Below are positions 24,828 to 54,897 of a stretch of DNA of 64,000 nucleotides, piece by piece (the first letter of the stretch is position 1; every line of letters begins with the position of its first letter). The stretch is taken from positions 3,080,441-3,144,440 of the forward strand of contig CBDCTH010000012.1 in NCBI GenBank assembly GCA_965222155.1, read 5' to 3'. The notes under the pieces were generated by a model that made no database searches, was not told the DNA's origin, and was given only the letters and a program-made list of their open reading frames with translations. The stretch is from Gammaproteobacteria bacterium. GTDB lineage: Bacteria > Pseudomonadota > Gammaproteobacteria > Eutrophobiales > Eutrophobiaceae. The position numbers and the translations under genes were made by a program.

Positions 24828-25157
24828 ATGAAGAGGATCAGTGACGCCGCTCAGACAGATCCCGAACACGGGGCATCCTGTTGTTGTGCCGGCTGTTTGG
24901 CAATAAATCTGGAAGAGCGAGGAGCCCAATCTCCAGACTCTCAAAGCGCCCGAGGTGCTCCAGCCCCTCAAAACGCCCCGGCCGCTGCGGAGCAGCTGCC
25001 CCAATGGGGCGTGCTCGCCTCGGACGCCTATGACGAGATCGCCGACTTCATGGGTAAGTCCGCTCGCTTTCCGATTGAGCCCGGCGGTGAGATCACGGTG
25101 AACCTCACCGATCTGACCGCTGGGCCCTGGCGGCCTGGGAGGCGGTGGCGAACCTGA
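24828..25157 (+). pseudogene. Segment 1 of a serralysin-like RTX giant gene (N-terminal region, frame 0)
   Basis: RBS gggagg lies upstream. The sequence ...FPIEPGGEITVNLTDLTA parallels FDVEPGGTLTADITALTPAGQQLARWALEVW of the paralog at 49111-53037. Homology then continues in another frame from ~25121. Confidence 0.7.
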
Positions 25158-27853
25158 CCTTTCGGGAAGTGGAAGACCACGCCAATATCAACTTCAAAGA
25201 TGGAGAAAGTGGTCACCCCACGATAACTAACCTCAAAAGAGAGAACGGGTTCGTCTCGCTCGACCTGCACTTTCCGATTGGATTCGTCAATAAGTCTGGC
25301 GACAGGCCCGGCGACTGGACGTTCATTGCTCACCTCCACGAGCTCGGCCATGCGTTGGGCTTGCCCCATGCCGGCCCCTACAATGGCTATCCTATTCCTA
25401 CGTACGGGCTCGATAACCGGTTTGCGGCAGACTCCTACCAGACGTCGGTCATGTCGTACTTCACTCAGACCAGAAACACCGGCATCGATGCGAGCAAGGC
25501 CTATCCGGTCACGCCGATGATGGCGGACATCCTGGCGATTCAGAAGCTGTATGGCGTCCCCGAGACCAACCCCGGGGATACCGTGTATGGCTACCAGTCC
25601 AACGTCGACGGCTACCTGGGGGAAGTCTTCGCGGCAATCACCGAGCAGGACGGTGAGCTTGATGGGCCGGTGGCACTGACGCTGTTCGACAGCGGCGGGG
25701 AGGACCGGCTGGACCTGCGCACGGATGAGACGGACCAGCGGGTGGACCTGCGCCCGGAAGGCGTCTCGGACGTGTACGGGCTGACGGGCAACTGGCTGAT
25801 AGCGCGGGGCACGGTGATTGAGAACCTGGTGGCCGGTCAGGGCGATGACCAGGTGATTGCGAATGCGGCGGTGAACGAGTTGGACGGTGGCCCGGGCAGT
25901 GACACGGTATCCTATGTGGGCTCGGATGCCGGGGTACGGGTGGACCTGGATGCGGGGACGGGTGTGGGCGGTCATGCTCAGGGCGACGCGCTCAGCAACT
26001 TTGAGCACGTGGTGGGCTCGGCACACGCTGACGAGTTGCGCGGCGATGAGCTGGCTAACCGGCTGGCGGGGGGCGCCGGCGACGATACGTTGTACGGCAA
26101 CGCGGGTGCTGACACGCTGGACGGGGGCGCGGGTAACGACCAGCTGTACGGTCACGAGGGCGACGACCATCTGCGCGGCGATGGTGGCGCTGACGTACTC
26201 GAAGGAGGCGCCGGGGCGGACACGCTGGAGGGCGGCAGTGGGGAGAACAGCGCAGCCTACCGGGGCTCGGACGTCGGGGTGGAGGTAAACCTGGACAGCG
26301 GAGTGGTGTCAGGCGGTCATGCTGCGGGCGACAGGCTCATCAGCATCCAGCACCTTATCGGCTCGGCCTATGCCGACACGCTGACGGGGGATGCGGACGC
26401 CAACCGGCTGGCGGGCGGGGCCGGGGATGACCGGCTGTACGGTAGCGCAGGGGACGATGTGCTGGTGGGCGGGGCCGGCGCCGACACGCTGGGCGGCGGC
26501 GCCGGGGCGGACTATCTGGATGGTGGTGGCGGCCCTGACCGGCTGGCCGGCGGCGCGGGGGATGACACACTGGAAGGGGGCCTGGGCAAGGACACACTGG
26601 ATGGCGGCGCGGGATATGATACTGCAACCTACGCAGGCTCTGCGGCGGGGGTACGGATTGACCTGAAGGCAGGCACGTTCCAGGGGGGTGATGCCGCCGG
26701 GGATGCGCTCACTGATATTGAGCGGATTGTCGGCTCGGCACAGGGCGATGTGCTGTGGGGAAGTGACGGGACAGACCACCTGGTCGGGGGCGCTGGGGAC
26801 GATGAGTTAGACGGTCGTCCGGGTGATGACACGCTGGCCGGCGGGGCCGGGGCGGACACATTGGACGGCGGCGCCGGGGACGACACGCTGCGCGGCGGTG
26901 ACGGGGACGATGTACTGGCCGGGGGCGCCGGCGATGATAAGGTGTACGGTGAAGACGGCGATGACCTGGTCAAAGGCGGTCCGGGGGCGGACACGCTGGC
27001 CGGGGCGGGTGGGGACGACACCTTGTCCTATGGGGACTCTGATGAGGGTGTGAAAGTGGATTTGTATTCTCATACGGCGTCAGGCGGTCATGCCGAGGGC
27101 GACGGAATTCGCGGCTTTCAGCATCTGGTGGGTTCGGCGCAGGCTGACGAGCTGCGGGGCGACTCTGGCGCCAACGAGTTGTGGGGGGGCGCCGGGGACG
27201 ATGAGTTGCGCGGCGAAGCTGGCGACGACACCCTCGACGGTGGCGAGGGTAAAGACCAGCTGTACGGTAACGACGGTAATGACCGACTGGACGGAGGCTT
27301 GAACAACGACCGGCTGTGGGGCGGCGATGGCAACGATCGGCTGGACGGAGGCTTGAACAACGACAAGCTGTGGGGCGACGGCGGCAACGATCGGCTGGAC
27401 GGGGGAGCAGGCTATGATCGACTGAAAGGAGGCCGCGGTGATGACACGCTCCATGGGGGCGCCGGTAACGATCAGCTCTACGGGGGCACCGGAGCGGACA
27501 CCGCGTCCTACACCGACTCGGACGCCGGCGTGCATGTGGACTTACACGCCGGGCGCGCCACGGGCGGTCATGCCCAGGGCGATAAACTGACGGACATTGA
27601 GAATCTGCGCGGTTCCGCGCATGACGATGGGCTGCGCGGGGACGGCGGCGCCAACCGGTTGTGGGGCGGTGCCGGGGATGACAAGCTGGTGGGGTGGTAC
27701 AGACACCCTGGAGGGAGGAGCCGGGGCGGACACCTTCGGATACGTCATGGGGGCGGACTCGAGCGTGGCCAACCCGGACCGGATTGTAGACTTCTCAGGG
27801 AGTGGCGGGGACGGCGACATGTTGAGCATACCTGGCAAGCGCTTTATCGGTAG
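25091..27853 (+). pseudogene. Segment 2: M10 (serralysin-type) zinc protease domain plus RTX nonapeptide blocks (frame 2)
   Basis: WALAAWEAVANLTFREV..., zinc motif HELGHALGLPH (25337-25369), Met-turn SVMSYF, then many GGxGxDxL repeats. Meaningful similarity ends at ~27694, and the remainder up to the stop is out-of-frame read-through. Confidence 0.75.
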
Positions 27854-49110: not shown

Positions 49111-52100
49111 TCAAACAATAAAGTCCGTTGCATCCAGGCTGGCCATAGCAAAGTCCGCCAGCAGGATCGTGCCACCGCCGCTGTCGGTGAGGTCAAGCGC
49201 CACACCGTCTGTCGTGGTCGTGGTGGTGAGGTTGTCAATGCCTGCCAGCCCGAAGGCCGTCAGGTCAATGCGGTCCACGCCGTCGGTGAAGTCCGTCACG
49301 GTGTCCTGCCCCTCCCCGGGGGCCACCACGAACACGTCGGCGCCCGGGCCACCCACCAACCGGTCGTCTCCCGCAGCGCCGGTGAGGCGGTCCCTCCCCT
49401 GCCCGCCGTAGAGCCGGTCGTTGCCCGGCCCACCGTCCAGCCGGTCATCGCCGCCGCCCGGCCCGCCGTACAGGGTGTCGTTGCCGGCGCCACCGTCGAT
49501 GACGTTATCCCGGCGGTCCCCGGCCAGCACGTCGTCGTGGGCAGAGCCGCTCAGGTGCTCGACATCGGGCAGGGATTCGGTCTGCTCAACACCGTCACTA
49601 TCGGTCCAGGCGACGTCAACTTTGTAAGGGAAGGTATCACCGGTCGCATCGCCACCCGTGGCCGAGAGGTTGTGCAGGCGCACGTCAACTTTGTAAGGGA
49701 AGGTATCACCGGTCGCATCGCCACCCGTGGCCGAGAGGTTGTGCAGGCGCACCGTGACACCGGTGGGGGAATGGGCCCAGGAAGCCGTGTCATGCCCGCT
49801 GTTGCCAACCAGGCGGTCCGCGCCCGGCCCGCCGATTAATATGTCATTGCCGGCGCTGCCCCAGAGGAAATCATTGCCGGCGCGTCCCTCCAGACGATTG
49901 GCCGTCGTGTTGCCGATGATTGTGTCATTGCCGGAGCCGGCGATGAAGTGTTCAATCACCGTCCCCCGGGCGATGACCAGACTGCCGACCAGACCGTAGA
50001 CGTCCGAGATGCCTTCAGGACGCAAGTCGACTCGCTGGTCAGCCGTATCCGTGCGCAGGTCGAGCGTATCGCTGCCGCCGTTGTCGTAGAGGGTCAGTGC
50101 GACCGATTGGCTAGGCTGTAATGGGGTGAAACTCGCCTCGGTGCGGCTGCCGGTGTTCTCGTAGTAGTTCAGGGTGCCGTCCTCCTCACCCATGACCAGG
50201 TCCAGGTCGCCGTCGTTGTCCAAGTCGGCAAAGGTTGGGGCGCTGTTACTATCCACATCGATGCCATCCAGGGGATTGTCAACGCCGGTGCGCTTTGTGA
50301 AGCCCGGCTGACTGCGGCTGCCAGTGTTCTCGAAGTAGTTCAGGATACCGTTCCCCTCACCCACGACCAGGTCCAGGTCGCCGTCGTTGTCCAGGTCGGC
50401 AAAGGTTGGGTTGCTGTGAGTATCCACATCGATACCATCCAGGGGATTGTCAACGCCGGTACGCTCTGTAAAGTCCGGCTGACTGCGGCTGCCGGTGTTC
50501 TCGTAGTAGTTCAGGATACCGTCCCGCTCACCCACGACCAGGTCCAGATCACCATCGTCGTCCAAGTCGGCAAAGGTTGGCACACTGAGCCAACCCACAT
50601 CGATACCAGCCAAGGGATCGGCAGCGCCAGTGCGTTCTGTGAAGCCCAGCTGACTGCGGCTGCCGGTGTTCTCATAGTAGTGCAGGGTGTCGTACCAATC
50701 ACCCACGACCAGGTCCAGATCACCATCGTCGTCCAGGTCGGCAAAGGTGGAGGTACTGTACCTACCCGTATTGATACCATCCAGGGGATCGGCAGCGCCA
50801 GTGCGTTCTGTGAAGCCCGGTTGACTGCGGCTGCCGGTGTCCTCGTAGTAGTACAGGGGGCCGTAATACTCACCCACGACCAGGTCCAGGTCGCCGTCAT
50901 TGTCCAGGTCAGCCAAAGTTGGCCTGCTAAGATTACCCACATCTATACCAGCGAAGGGATTTAACTCACCGGTCCAGAGTGAGAAGATCTGACCAGGGTA
51001 GCCGTCCACGTTAGAGTGATAGCCATAGACGGTGTCGCCGAGGTTGATATCAGTGGGCGTGCCATAGAGATTCTGAATGGCGATGATGTCCGCAATCATC
51101 GGCGTGGCAGGGGTAACTCTGCTGGCCTCAATATAGGTGTTCCACTCCTGGTTGAAGTAGGACATCACTGACGCTTGCTGAGAGTCGTTCAGGAATGCGT
51201 TGTCAACCCCGTAGATAGTACTGAGTATCGCTCCATCATCGGCGTACCTTGGGTAGGGTCCCGAGTGCCCGAGGCCAAGGGCATGGCCGATTTCGTGGAC
51301 GTAGACATAGGCATGGGTGATGCCTGGGTTAATCGTGGCATGGAGAGGGAGCCAGTCTTTCGATATGTTGACATGCGAAGAGATAATCAAGTACGTGCCG
51401 TCATCTGAGGGTGTCCTCCTGGTTGCTCTGGCATGGGCACCGTCCTCTTCGTCGTCGAAGGTAATGTGCGCATCACCGTCCACGAACTCGAAACCGATGC
51501 CGGTGACGGAGGTCCAGACCTCCAGGGCCCAGCGAGCGAGTTGCTGACCCGCAGGTGTCAGGGCGGTGATGTCAGCGGTCAAAGTACCGCCGGGTTCAAC
51601 GTCGAAGGCGCGGCGCGCCCAGAAGCCATCGGTCAGATAATTGGCAATCTCGTCATAGGTGCCCTCGGGGGTCGTGTTCTCAACGACTGACACTTCGTAG
51701 TCCCAAACGTCGGTATTGTCATCCCCACCTTCTACCTTGAGGTAATACGTGCCGGTAGCCGACACCCGATGAATATCAATCACAGCATCAGAACCGTAAC
51801 TGGAAACCTTGGACAAGATGTTGTCTCCGCTCGAGTCCAAGAGCGAAAGATGGAGCCGGGTGTCCTTGGCCGCCGCGATGCTTGCAATACCGAACCTGTA
51901 AATCATCCCGGCGGTCAGCTCGATGCGGACCCAATCCACATCTCCAGTCTGGCTCCCATCTTCATTGCTGGTGGGGTTTAATGCCCCTTGGAAGATAGCG
52001 CCGACGGCCATCGTATACTGGGTATCGACACCAGCAACCGCATCGCCGTTGTCTTCTTTCAGGGAAGAATATGGGTTGAAATCTCCCTCGGTACGGGTGC

Positions 52101-53037
52101 CGGTATTCTCGTAGTAGTACAGGTAGCCGACATCCTTACCCACGACCAGGTCCAGGTCACCGTCGTTGTCCAGGTCGGCAAAGGTTGGTTTGGGGTTGCT
52201 ACGATTACCTACATCGATACCAGCCAAGGGATTGGCAACGCCGGTACGCTCTGTAAAGCCCGGTTGACTGCGCGTGCCGGTGTTCTCGTAGTAGTACAGG
52301 TGGTCATCATACTCACCCACGACCAGGTCCAGGTCGCCGTCGTTGTCCAAGTCGGCAAAGGTTGGGGTGCTATTATCACCCACATCGATACCAGCCAGGG
52401 GATTGGCAACGCCGGTGCGCTCTGTGAAGACCGGCTGACTGCCGGTGCCGGTGTTCTCGTAGTAATTCAGGGTGCCGTCCCCCTCGCCCACGACCAAATC
52501 CAGGTCGCCGTCGCCGTCCAGGTCGGTAAAGGTTGGGGTGTGGTAATCACCCGCATCGATACCAGCCAGGGGATTGGCAGCGCCGGTACGCTCTGTGAAT
52601 CCAGGCTGACTGCGGCTGTTGGTGTTCTCGTAGTAATTCAAGTTGCCGTACCACTCACCCACGACCAGGTCCAGGTCGCCGTCGTTGTCCAGGTCAGCAA
52701 AGGTTGGGGCGCTCGCGTCACCCACATCGATACCAGCCAGGGGATTGGCAGCGCCGGTACGCTCTGTGAAATCCGGCTGACTGCCGGTGCCGGTGTTCTC
52801 GTAGTAGTACAGATGGCCATGAGCTGCACCCACGACCAAATCCAGGTCACCATCGTTGTCCAAGTCGGCAAAGGTTGGCGCACTATGAGCAACCATATCA
52901 ATGCCAGCGACAGGATTGCTCCCAGCGCCAGTGGTACTGTTGAGCGTGCCTAGCAAGTCCCCGCCAGCGGCCATCTTGTGCTGGGTGCCAGCGTCTGCAG
53001 GCGCCGCAGTGCCGTTGTCTTTTTTCAGGATAGTCAT
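49111..53037 (-). CDS. 1308-aa mosaic secreted-type protein: 5 FG-GAP/VCBS repeats, PPC-like domain, M10 serralysin-type protease, 5 more FG-GAP repeats, RTX repeats, T1SS-type C-terminus
   Basis: Ten repeats of TFADLDNDGDLDLVVGE..G.L.YYENTG..SQP.FTERTG, five at ~52075-52905 and five at ~50105-50965. Zinc motif HEIGHALGLGH (51265-51297) and Met-turn SVMSYF. GGxGxD repeats, ending ...SLDATDFIV-stop. RBS aggaga lies upstream of the atg at 53037. Confidence 0.85.
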   Translation of the reverse strand: MTILKKDNGTAAPADAGTQHKMAAGGDLLGTLNSTTGAGSNPVAGIDMVAHSAPTFADLDNDGDLDLVVGAAHGHLYYYENTGTGSQPDFTERTGAANPLAGIDVGDASAPTFADLDNDGDLDLVVGEWYGNLNYYENTNSRSQPGFTERTGAANPLAGIDAGDYHTPTFTDLDGDGDLDLVVGEGDGTLNYYENTGTGSQPVFTERTGVANPLAGIDVGDNSTPTFADLDNDGDLDLVVGEYDDHLYYYENTGTRSQPGFTERTGVANPLAGIDVGNRSNPKPTFADLDNDGDLDLVVGKDVGYLYYYENTGTRTEGDFNPYSSLKEDNGDAVAGVDTQYTMAVGAIFQGALNPTSNEDGSQTGDVDWVRIELTAGMIYRFGIASIAAAKDTRLHLSLLDSSGDNILSKVSSYGSDAVIDIHRVSATGTYYLKVEGGDDNTDVWDYEVSVVENTTPEGTYDEIANYLTDGFWARRAFDVEPGGTLTADITALTPAGQQLARWALEVWTSVTGIGFEFVDGDAHITFDDEEDGAHARATRRTPSDDGTYLIISSHVNISKDWLPLHATINPGITHAYVYVHEIGHALGLGHSGPYPRYADDGAILSTIYGVDNAFLNDSQQASVMSYFNQEWNTYIEASRVTPATPMIADIIAIQNLYGTPTDINLGDTVYGYHSNVDGYPGQIFSLWTGELNPFAGIDVGNLSRPTLADLDNDGDLDLVVGEYYGPLYYYEDTGSRSQPGFTERTGAADPLDGINTGRYSTSTFADLDDDGDLDLVVGDWYDTLHYYENTGSRSQLGFTERTGAADPLAGIDVGWLSVPTFADLDDDGDLDLVVGERDGILNYYENTGSRSQPDFTERTGVDNPLDGIDVDTHSNPTFADLDNDGDLDLVVGEGNGILNYFENTGSRSQPGFTKRTGVDNPLDGIDVDSNSAPTFADLDNDGDLDLVMGEEDGTLNYYENTGSRTEASFTPLQPSQSVALTLYDNGGSDTLDLRTDTADQRVDLRPEGISDVYGLVGSLVIARGTVIEHFIAGSGNDTIIGNTTANRLEGRAGNDFLWGSAGNDILIGGPGADRLVGNSGHDTASWAHSPTGVTVRLHNLSATGGDATGDTFPYKVDVRLHNLSATGGDATGDTFPYKVDVAWTDSDGVEQTESLPDVEHLSGSAHDDVLAGDRRDNVIDGGAGNDTLYGGPGGGDDRLDGGPGNDRLYGGQGRDRLTGAAGDDRLVGGPGADVFVVAPGEGQDTVTDFTDGVDRIDLTAFGLAGIDNLTTTTTTDGVALDLTDSGGGTILLADFAMASLDATDFIV
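49615..49752. repeat. Perfect 2 x 69-bp tandem duplication inside the RTX region of the mosaic gene
   Basis: 49615-49683 equals 49684-49752, base for base. It encodes VRLHNLSATGGDATGDTFPYKVD twice. Confidence 0.95.
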
Positions 53038-53254
53038 GTTGTTCTCCTAATTGTTGTCGGATTACCGGCCTCAAGGGAGACAAGGAAACCATTTGTTTGG
53101 GCTGACAGATGGAGGAGCACGTGGAGGCTGATGTGCGGTGTCGTACTGATAGCCTCCCCCATGAAGCAGTGAGGGTGTGCCGAAATACGCTGTCACAGGC
53201 CCGCGCACTGGCTGCCGTGGAGTGTCATAATTGATTAAAAGACCTATTAATTTC

Positions 53255-53628: not shown

Positions 53629-54897
53629 TTAATTGTATAAAAACCCTTCATAGACAAAGGCGCTGCTGATTTTTTCGCAGTCGGGTTCCGATACTCCGGC
53701 CTGGCGGGCTGTTTCGTGCCATGTACTCTTGATTTGTTTTTGCATGTCATCCAAGAGTCGTGCAGCGCCATCTTTTTCAAGCAGGAAACGGTTTGATTGA
53801 GACAGCAGGTTTGTCGCGTTGGCGCGCCGGCCGGCATCCCCGCAAATTAATGCCAGGTCGCGTCGTTCTATACTGACCGGCGTGAATGGAGTCAGATCAT
53901 AAGCAGGAGACAGTTGCCAGTCATATTCTGCGGCGATAACGGCGTGATTACGTGGATGATCATCAATATTGGAGATTAATGCATTAAAACACATACGCCG
54001 AAACAATTCTTCGGCATCCTCTCTGGGCGTTGCAGACAATCGGCGTAACTCTTCTGCCAACACAGGGTATGACCACTTGCCACGGGAGGTGTGAGTATCT
54101 TCAGCGCGCAGCAAGGTCAAGGCGCTGAGCATGCGGGCGCGAGTATAGCCTTTCCCGGTTTTCTCCCGGTCGAAACGTTTGACGAGCAACACATCCTGTT
54201 TTCCAACTTGAACAACAGTACTTGAGGCTGTCGTCAAGCCACAGGCCCGGGCAAGCATCAGCATGGCATGTTCCACCCGCGCATTGTTCCATTTATCATC
54301 ATCACGATTAAACTTTGCGATCCATAATCCATCATTATCTTCGACAACGGTCTTGGGTCGCGCCCCTCCCATGGAGGTGCCGATCAACATCAGGTTATAG
54401 ACCTGTTCCTTATTTGGCTCATCAGGGAGTGGTTCACCATTTATAACGGCCATAGCGATTTTTTGCAGGTGCGCCAGGTCAATTGTTTGATTAAACTCAG
54501 GCGCTATAGCTGGTGGAGTCAGCTTCAAGCCAAAACTCAGGGCGCCCGCTCGATCATCCGGCGCATGGAGTAAATAGTCCATTTCACTCAATTCCGGTTT
54601 TCCCGCCTGCCGTTCGAGCACCTGCCGTCCCCAGTGACCCGGACCGGCGTCCTGAAATGCGCCAAACACGCCTTTTAATGCGCGTGTTTCATAGACACGC
54701 TCAGACAGTTTCAACTCGACAGGGTCAATCGGCACCTTGTCCGGTCGGGCCAGGTAGCTTCTGCCGTACACAAACAACCCGCCAGGCAAACCCGATTTAT
54801 CAGGTTGGACGACGAATTTACCCGCAGTAACGGGTATTGTCTCGCCTGGCAAGGTGATATAGACAAAACACTCGGTTTGATTGAATTCAGAAATCAT
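53629..54897 (-). CDS. hipA: HipA-family serine/threonine kinase toxin
   Basis: 422 aa. The N-terminal HipA-coupling-like region reads CFVYITLPGETIPVTAGKF...YGRSYL. The C-terminal kinase core has ...GGARPK... and ...NIDDHPRNHAV. Confidence 0.86.
   Translation of the reverse strand: MISEFNQTECFVYITLPGETIPVTAGKFVVQPDKSGLPGGLFVYGRSYLARPDKVPIDPVELKLSERVYETRALKGVFGAFQDAGPGHWGRQVLERQAGKPELSEMDYLLHAPDDRAGALSFGLKLTPPAIAPEFNQTIDLAHLQKIAMAVINGEPLPDEPNKEQVYNLMLIGTSMGGARPKTVVEDNDGLWIAKFNRDDDKWNNARVEHAMLMLARACGLTTASSTVVQVGKQDVLLVKRFDREKTGKGYTRARMLSALTLLRAEDTHTSRGKWSYPVLAEELRRLSATPREDAEELFRRMCFNALISNIDDHPRNHAVIAAEYDWQLSPAYDLTPFTPVSIERRDLALICGDAGRRANATNLLSQSNRFLLEKDGAARLLDDMQKQIKSTWHETARQAGVSEPDCEKISSAFVYEGFLYN

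Follow-up and report, generated by a model that had tools for sequence, protein, structure and literature searches.

The question raised by this locus is what two arrays of FG-GAP repeats are doing in a serralysin-type metalloprotease, one of them ahead of the catalytic domain and the other lodged between that domain and the C-terminal tail. The gene lies in a stretch of 64,000 nucleotides (nt) from a Gammaproteobacteria bacterium (assembly GCA_965222155.1, contig CBDCTH010000012.1, positions 3,080,441 to 3,144,440), which is called the window here and to which all coordinates refer unless another locus is named. Its product of 1308 amino acids (aa) has, in order, a leader, five FG-GAP units, a second copy of the leader with a PPC-like segment, an M10 catalytic domain, five more FG-GAP units, an RTX beta-roll, and a putative C-terminal secretion signal. 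The reading favored here, with a probability of roughly 0.65, is that the protein is a zinc protease of the serralysin type (M10B) that depends on calcium and leaves the cell by type I secretion, and in which two autonomous five-bladed FG-GAP propellers would serve as binding modules. Serralysins are the textbook type I secreted proteases of virulence and host interaction, with a fixed two-domain layout; here an apparently abundant environmental subfamily has a probable propeller at the junction between the catalytic domain and the beta-roll.

The enzyme itself is readily recognized, and the first-pass annotation, which was made from the sequence alone and described a serralysin-type M10 core with an RTX tail, is borne out on this point. 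Pfam places Peptidase_M10 at aa 500-593, Peptidase_M10_C (PF08548) at aa 970-1067 with an expectation value (E) of 9e-24, and HemolysinCabind (PF00353) in six stretches (E = 2e-35). The catalytic region aligns with AprA and serralysin chains over their residues ~87-266 (E about 3e-14), with HEIGHALGLGH and SVMSY conserved, and the extended HEXXHXXGXXH zinc motif and the SxMSY Met-turn of the serralysin/M10B group, with the tyrosine that is a zinc ligand, are both present. The GGxGxD beta-roll of serralysins is present as well and matches residues 265-388 of their chains. No hydrophobic N-terminal stretch or Sec signal is seen in the protein, which ends ...DFIV, and the C-termini of the family end D-F-(L/I)-(F/V) almost universally. 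Hemopexin repeats and a cysteine-switch pro-domain, which would point toward another M10 group, have no Pfam match in the 1308 aa. With the known serralysins (Serratia serralysin, Pseudomonas AprA, and Dickeya PrtC; PDB 1sat, 1kap/1akl, and 1k7g) the protein has in common the zinc motif, the Met-turn, the GDTVYGxxSN strand, the Peptidase_M10_C/RTX beta-roll, an acidic-hydrophobic tail, and the lack of a Sec signal. It differs from these classical enzymes of ~470 aa in its length, in the absence of an adjacent secretion/inhibitor operon, in a five-blade FG-GAP insert of ~285 aa at AprA residue ~266, and in a PPC-like domain and an extra propeller before the catalytic domain. The PPC-like segment had been described from its sequence as a beta-sandwich. 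The region is all-beta in the AlphaFold2 model; it is also conserved as the N-terminus of the family, and some homologs have a precomputed PF04151 (PPC) match. In the window protein, however, the PF04151 match stays below threshold (20.4 bits versus a cut-off of 25.9, E = 1e-3), even though it covers model positions 1-70 of 70.

The two arrays are equally clear. Pfam finds FG-GAP_3 in ten stretches (E = 1.1e-54) and FG-GAP with E = 5e-31, which confirms the five-plus-five count of FG-GAP/VCBS repeats made at first sight; the repeat length then given, ~66 aa, has to be corrected to 57 aa, the spacing of the calcium loops. Tandem Repeats Finder gives the corresponding period of 171 nt in two arrays, at 52096-52878 (score 1006) and 50142-50961 (score 1038), a periodicity that is far beyond chance. 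All ten units have an intact DxDxDGxxD calcium loop (at aa 58, 115, 172, 229, and 288 in the first array and at aa 710, 767, 824, 881, and 938 in the second), and the motif is invariant in the family alignments. Units are 56-82% identical, as much between the arrays as within them, with the exception of the fifth N-terminal unit, which is mis-registered; position-specific hidden Markov models of insert units 1-5, built to learn if the N-terminal module had been copied whole from the insert, gave scores that barely differed by position, the units being too alike. These are not propellers of the seven-bladed integrin-alpha type: there are exactly five units in each array, the models show 5 x 4 strands, and the template modelling score (TM-score) to the seven-bladed PVL is 0.43.

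The position of the second array can be fixed by comparison with another RTX/M10 gene in the window. In a BLASTP alignment with the open reading frame (ORF) at 25145..27853, aa 516-696 of the query correspond to aa 6-177 of the paralog, and aa 979 onward to aa 176 onward; because the two segments abut in the paralog, the second array is an exact insertion there, as the first-pass annotation had proposed. By this alignment it is a clean insertion of about 282-285 aa, comprising exactly five units at one junction. Relative both to the in-window paralog and to AprA, the insert separates the GDTVYGxxSN strand from the first strand of the beta-roll. In particular, query aa ~678 (GDTVYGYHSNVD) corresponds to AprA residue 266 and query aa 966 to AprA residue 265 (1akl), and thus the propeller would sit in the loop that follows strand one of the C-terminal domain. 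Insertion into a loop requires that the two ends of the inserted domain be close together, a need that a closed propeller meets. (It should be noted that the comparison gene, in which the two segments are indeed contiguous, is not the intact gene it was first taken to be. It is a giant RTX/M10 gene at 24828-33476 (+) that is spread over three frames, 24828-25157, 25145-27853, and 27597-33476, of which the first encodes the N-terminal piece (YDEIADFMG...EPGGEITVNLTDLTAG) and the third ends in DFIV. Because the pieces are in different frames, there are at least two frameshifts, which are either real decay, making this a pseudogene, or sequencing errors of the kind caused by long-read indels. The comparison gene has neither a PPC-like domain nor an FG-GAP insert, and its content of guanine plus cytosine is 68-70% versus about 52-58% around it.)

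Insight into how widespread this arrangement is came from a search of 5.8 billion proteins, which gave 1956 matches at E <= 1e-10. A total of 125 proteins were examined, consisting of the best 120 of the 1956 matches, the cluster member P0127, and four proteins from a search of a representative library. (The library search, with aa 318-1030, was swamped by multi-array FG-GAP proteins, so that only single-stretch matches were usable.) An M10 zinc motif together with a recognizable beta-roll start is found in 97 of the 125, and in 92 of these 97 the distance from HExxH to the beta-roll is 390-419 aa, i.e., an insert of the same size is present at the same site; in non-inserted relatives the distance is 95-129 aa. 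It reaches 701 aa in P0023 and P0031, which corresponds to a ten-unit insert, and these two proteins have no N-terminal array. Typically the zinc motif is found at ~aa 240-256, with five FG-GAP units at ~aa 365-610 and RTX repeats from ~aa 690-705. At the level of 50% identity, at least nine clusters align with the query over one unbroken stretch, aa 8-713. Homologs from metagenome-assembled genomes (MAGs) of Gammaproteobacteria (MDE0511264.1, here P0030; MCY4210815.1, here P0120; loci L001-L006) share the PPC-like/M10/five FG-GAP/RTX order and the identical insertion site and are 45-55% identical to the window protein over the core, but they lack the N-terminal leader-plus-propeller, and many have far longer RTX regions (1600-2100 aa). 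Among the best 80 loci from species-representative genomes, the insert occurs only in L001-L006, all of them from uncultured MAGs named 'Gammaproteobacteria bacterium'; non-inserted paralogs (L007-L009 and L011) are found in the same MAGs as the insert-bearing loci, and the alphaproteobacterial relatives (Roseibium, Pseudovibrio, Paracoccus, and others) are all without it. MAG names such as RHO3_bin_19 hint that the metagenomes may come from sponges or other invertebrates. In sponge-associated Pseudovibrio, serralysin-like RTX proteins have been noted as abundant and as putative factors of host interaction (PMC4811931).

As judged from these alignments, the order M10/five blades/RTX is the standard layout of a large, uncharacterized serralysin subfamily of uncultured, presumably marine Gammaproteobacteria. 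A reading of the insert as a unique local elaboration of the protease core is consequently rejected, because the architecture is family-wide and is also seen in two paralogs (P0004 and P0127) described below. The outcome that the first-pass annotation named as its own refutation, that the architecture is common and already characterized, holds in its first part: the M10/FG-GAP/RTX order is common. As to the second part, no paper describing it was found, and a literature search gave no description of FG-GAP/VCBS repeats within serralysins or of five-bladed FG-GAP propellers; the source names of the homologs are only generic ('M10 family metallopeptidase' and 'FG-GAP-like repeat-containing protein').

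What the inserted array looks like was addressed with AlphaFold2 models of aa 30-1095 (from a 36-sequence alignment) and of the insert alone (aa 686-978, 37 sequences). In the longer model, whose mean predicted local distance difference test (pLDDT) is 71.5, both arrays appear as 5 x 4 strands, with a pLDDT of about 80-88 for the N-terminal array and about 84-92 for the insert. The insert alone is predicted with a pLDDT of 90.8 and a predicted template modelling score (pTM) of 0.90, which indicate one compact domain, and it has exactly 20 strands in five groups of four. When the insert is compared with the PDB using Foldseek, the top matches (probability 1.00, E = 5e-9 to 1e-5, root-mean-square deviation about 8 Å) are the propellers of the fungal lectins PVL (2bwm) and AAL2 (4tqj), of CRTAC1 (9etn), of the Tc-toxin protein TcB (6h6f), and of ITFG2 (9v6e), together with BBS proteins; neither a well-matching solved structure nor a solved five-bladed FG-GAP propeller is among the PDB matches for the insert. 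The whole 1066-aa model gives only low-TM multi-domain matches (DDB1, SF3B, and GH43). The FG-GAP propellers of the integrin alpha head, PVL/AAL2, CRTAC1, TcB, and ITFG2 belong to the same Pfam repeat family as the window arrays and have the same calcium-loop motif. These propellers are known with six to eight blades, whereas the window arrays have exactly five units per module.

These features can be combined into a plausible course of events. The protein, which has no Sec signal, would be held unfolded in the low-calcium cytoplasm and would leave the cell with its C-terminus leading, through a type I system whose genes lie elsewhere in the genome and which would recognize the ...DFIV tail. 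On reaching calcium-rich seawater or host fluid, the beta-roll would fold first, followed by the inserted propeller, the catalytic domain, the PPC-like domain, and the N-terminal propeller. The propellers and the PPC-like domain would then act as exosites or anchors that steer the protease to particular protein or glycan targets, in the manner of the hemopexin propeller of the matrix metalloproteinases (MMPs). The first part of this scheme follows the RTX/type I mechanism, in which the protein is unfolded at cytoplasmic calcium, carries an uncleaved C-terminal signal, and folds on meeting extracellular calcium (PMC3034196); the missing Sec signal, the RTX repeats, and the acidic-hydrophobic tail together fit that mechanism, and a propeller that appears to need calcium in every blade is compatible with the type I route. 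The binding role is suggested by analogy, both to the lectin- and integrin-like structural relatives of the insert and to the hemopexin domain.

Several observations weigh against this reading. Genes for an ABC exporter, a membrane fusion protein, and TolC were not found in the 64-kb window or in the regions flanking two homologous loci (L001 and L003); none of the large ORFs of the window (TonB receptor, ABC importer, Nramp, M3 peptidase, HipA, and TPR protein) codes for an exporter. The best NCBIfam family of the protease, Zn_serralysin (NF035945), scores 234.5 bits, below the cut-off of 500, and matches in four separate stretches; the full-length match is broken because of the insert and the extra N-terminal domains. 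The aa 30-1095 model reaches a pTM of no more than 0.51, its confidence being low for parts of the catalytic domain and of the calcium-free beta-roll, and it does not fix where the propellers lie relative to the active site. The TM-scores of the insert to solved propellers are low (0.42-0.52). Such poor superposition is as expected for a ring with a different number of blades; closure of the five blades into a ring is presumed. Finally, frameshifts in neighbouring RTX genes and in an ortholog (see below) hint that some members of the family decay.

A rival interpretation, which we consider unlikely, is that the FG-GAP modules bind no ligand and instead act as calcium-driven folding ratchets or spacers, aiding type I export and stability outside the cell in the way that extra RTX blocks would. 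An intact DxDxDGxxD in every blade, a module number that varies freely among close relatives, and the fact that the most conserved positions are the structural repeat motifs are all in keeping with such a role, and RTX repeats are known to act in this manner (PMC3034196). However, the beta-roll already supplies that function, and the nearest structural relatives of the insert are binding propellers, i.e., lectins and integrin-like proteins. Moreover, the insert is fixed at five units and at one site across a divergent family, which points to a folded domain with a role of its own. Binding modules remain the preferred interpretation of the arrays.

The N-terminal array has a different standing from the insert. 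FG-GAP units upstream of the zinc motif are found in only three of the 120 clusters that make up the best 120 matches: P0001, which is the window gene, P0002, and P0005. In the window protein the first ~36 aa (MTILKKDNGTAAP...GTLNSTTG) are a diverged copy of the normal family N-terminus, which recurs after the array (aa 4-36 versus aa 327-358, at 52924-53037 and 51964-52062, respectively; 48% identity, pairwise E = 5e-07). With a copy of the leader on either side of the array, what was added is a unit of one leader and five blades. P0002 (L081:5822-10556) is the syntenic ortholog, with which the window shares the gene order HipA, protease, YchF, SNF2 helicase. It has the leader-plus-array unit and in addition a second five-blade module in the PPC-like domain, in the loop between ...FQGTLN and DWIRV (beta1-beta2), and the gene is broken at the start of the beta-roll, giving a 1305-aa ORF and a separate 190-aa ORF. 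In P0005 (1170 aa, on a metagenome contig) the N-terminal array runs straight on into the beginning of the catalytic domain (…FNPNSLEIADYLTDGYW), with no PPC-like domain. The number of N-terminal modules among close relatives is 0, 1, or 2.

This variation bears on whether the five N-terminal and five inserted blades could pack into one propeller of ten blades wrapped around the catalytic domain or capping it, an arrangement that the first-pass annotation had raised. The two arrays do resemble each other as much as the units within one array do (65-82% identity), and both are modelled with good local confidence. Nevertheless, a ring of this kind is improbable. About 95% of the family have only the insert and no N-terminal array; P0002 has two N-terminal modules, so that its units number 10 + 5; and P0023 and P0031 have the ten-unit insert and no N-terminal array. 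In addition, the insert is predicted to be compact when isolated (pTM 0.90), and the full-length prediction has a pTM of 0.51. Given the insert-only majority, the variable number of modules (0, 1, or 2 at the N-terminus; 5 or 10 units in the insert), and the confident model of the isolated insert, it is most likely that each five-unit array forms a five-bladed propeller of its own.

The same optional N-terminal module could be taken as the anchor of a surface-retained adhesin-protease, the orphan leader and the propeller acting like the N-terminal plugs of LapA-type adhesins. FG-GAP/VCBS arrays are common in giant adhesin-like RTX proteins among the homologs, and an add-on of this sort would suit such a function. 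We nonetheless hold this to be very improbable: nothing resembling a known retention module or a LapG-type cleavage motif was noticed (no search was aimed at these), and a propeller that depends on calcium should not fold inside the cytoplasm, as it would have to do to plug the channel.

The same genome contains two further insert-bearing paralogs on the same 3,509,455-bp contig, outside the window: P0004 (968 aa) and P0127 (1355 aa). Their likeness to the window protein changes along the sequence. The PPC-like region is 59% identical in P0004 and 69% in P0127, the insert is 98% identical in P0004 and 72% in P0127, and the C-terminal part is 72% identical in P0004 and 95% in P0127, a mosaic that suggests recombination or gene conversion among the three paralogs. 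The RTX region of the window gene also contains a 69-nt duplication (aa ~1096-1141; 2.1 copies, 98% match in Tandem Repeats Finder), which is recent, because the sequence occurs only once in P0004, in P0127, and in the family consensus. With its two propellers and duplicated leader, the window form is a rare and apparently recent variant within a recombining paralog family. The least probable account of the locus is that the gene has no current function, being either a copy that is chimeric or in decay or an artefact from the assembly of repetitive DNA: the two or more frameshifts in the in-window RTX paralog, the split ortholog P0002, the fresh 69-nt duplication, the orphan leader, and the mosaic identity to other paralogs would all suit it, but the 3.9-kb frame is fully open, with the Shine-Dalgarno sequence, zinc motif, Met-turn, and ten calcium loops intact, the duplication is in frame, and the same leader-array arrangement occurs on an independent metagenome contig. 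Judged by its open ORF, its Shine-Dalgarno sequence, and its conserved catalytic residues, the gene looks functional, and its ATG start is backed by homologs that begin MTILKEDNGDA.

A broader proposal, which we put forward tentatively and with rather less than even confidence, is that the five-unit FG-GAP array represents a distinct, calcium-loaded, five-bladed class of propeller that behaves as an insertion-competent cassette. By sequence, the contexts in which the cassette is seen in the family are the first loop of the beta-roll (in all members, and sometimes doubled), the beta1-beta2 loop of the PPC-like domain (P0002), and the N-terminal leader-plus-propeller (the window gene). The propeller would occur in strict five-blade quanta that move between loops and between paralogs, with paralogs exchanging modules, and it could provide an exosite analogous to hemopexin, possibly for host matrix or glycans in animal-associated Gammaproteobacteria.

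The analogy with hemopexin has definite limits. MMPs (M10A) combine a metzincin catalytic domain with a small hemopexin beta-propeller that serves as a substrate-binding exosite. This propeller is four-bladed, is built from an unrelated repeat family, and is appended after a linker rather than inserted, and MMPs use the Sec/endoplasmic reticulum route of secretion and have a pro-domain with a cysteine switch. The window protein is similar to MMPs by analogy only and is not a member of that group. Precedent for modular fusion around an RTX/M10 core is provided by Caulobacter Sap (SapA), to which the window protein has a partial NCBIfam match and which has been described previously (PMC3034196), and in CylK a calcium-binding domain is fused with a beta-propeller (PMC8916777). 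In both SapA and CylK, however, the partner domains are other ones, are appended and not inserted, and contain no FG-GAP repeats. The locus offers a clean case of a domain inserted, and of modules shuffled, within a classical secreted protease; the system itself is of a known kind. If the propeller is indeed a binding exosite, it would determine which targets the protease chooses and would stand as the counterpart, in bacteria, of the hemopexin domain of MMPs; it would also be a natural example of a large, calcium-foldable domain that tolerates type I secretion, which could be useful for engineered secreted fusions.

Table 1. Features of the protease gene and its product, with window coordinates and the basis of each assignment.
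Feature	Position	Strand	Basis
Complete coding sequence, 1308 aa	49111..53037	-	ATG start; ORF list, Pfam/NCBIfam matches
Shine-Dalgarno AGGAG, 6 nt upstream of ATG	53044..53048	-	Read from sequence
Leader copy 1, aa 1-38, orphan duplicate of family N-terminus	52924..53037	-	Pairwise alignment, family N-termini
N-terminal array, five 57-aa FG-GAP/VCBS units, aa 39-325	52063..52923	-	Pfam, motif, Tandem Repeats Finder, AlphaFold2
Leader copy 2 and PPC-like beta-sandwich, aa 326-470	51628..52062	-	Sub-threshold Pfam; all-beta in model; conserved as family N-terminus
M10 serralysin-type catalytic domain, aa 471-690	50968..51627	-	Pfam Peptidase_M10; AprA/serralysin alignment
Zinc-binding motif HEIGHALGLGH, aa 581-591	51265..51297	-	Alignment to AprA motif
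Met-turn SVMSY including the serralysin tyrosine, aa 623-627	51157..51171	-	Alignment to SVMSY of AprA
Inserted array, five 57-aa FG-GAP/VCBS units, aa 691-975	50113..50967	-	BLASTP mapping, AlphaFold2, Foldseek
Serralysin C-terminal domain and RTX beta-roll, aa 976-1240	49318..50112	-	Peptidase_M10_C, HemolysinCabind; matches serralysin and CyaA RTX chains
In-frame 69-nt tandem duplication in RTX region, 23 aa, VRLHNLSATGGDATGDTFPYKVD x 2	49607..49752	-	Tandem Repeats Finder
C-terminal ~68 aa ending ...LDATDFIV, putative uncleaved type I secretion signal	49114..49317	-	Family C-termini

Two ORFs on the opposite strand, 51988..52953 (+, 321 aa) and 50416..50964 (+, 182 aa), were considered as genes and rejected; they lie entirely inside the FG-GAP arrays and are most likely by-products of the codon composition of the repeats. 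Immediately upstream of the protease gene is a gene for a HipA-family toxin kinase (53629-54897, -), and the HipA of the ortholog contig L081 has a helix-turn-helix partner. In one of the related Gammaproteobacteria MAGs (L001:19302-21356, +), a single ORF joins a GPP34/GOLPH3 domain, whose family takes its name from a eukaryotic Golgi protein, to a cytochrome P450, and it adjoins a Rieske/KshA-like oxygenase.

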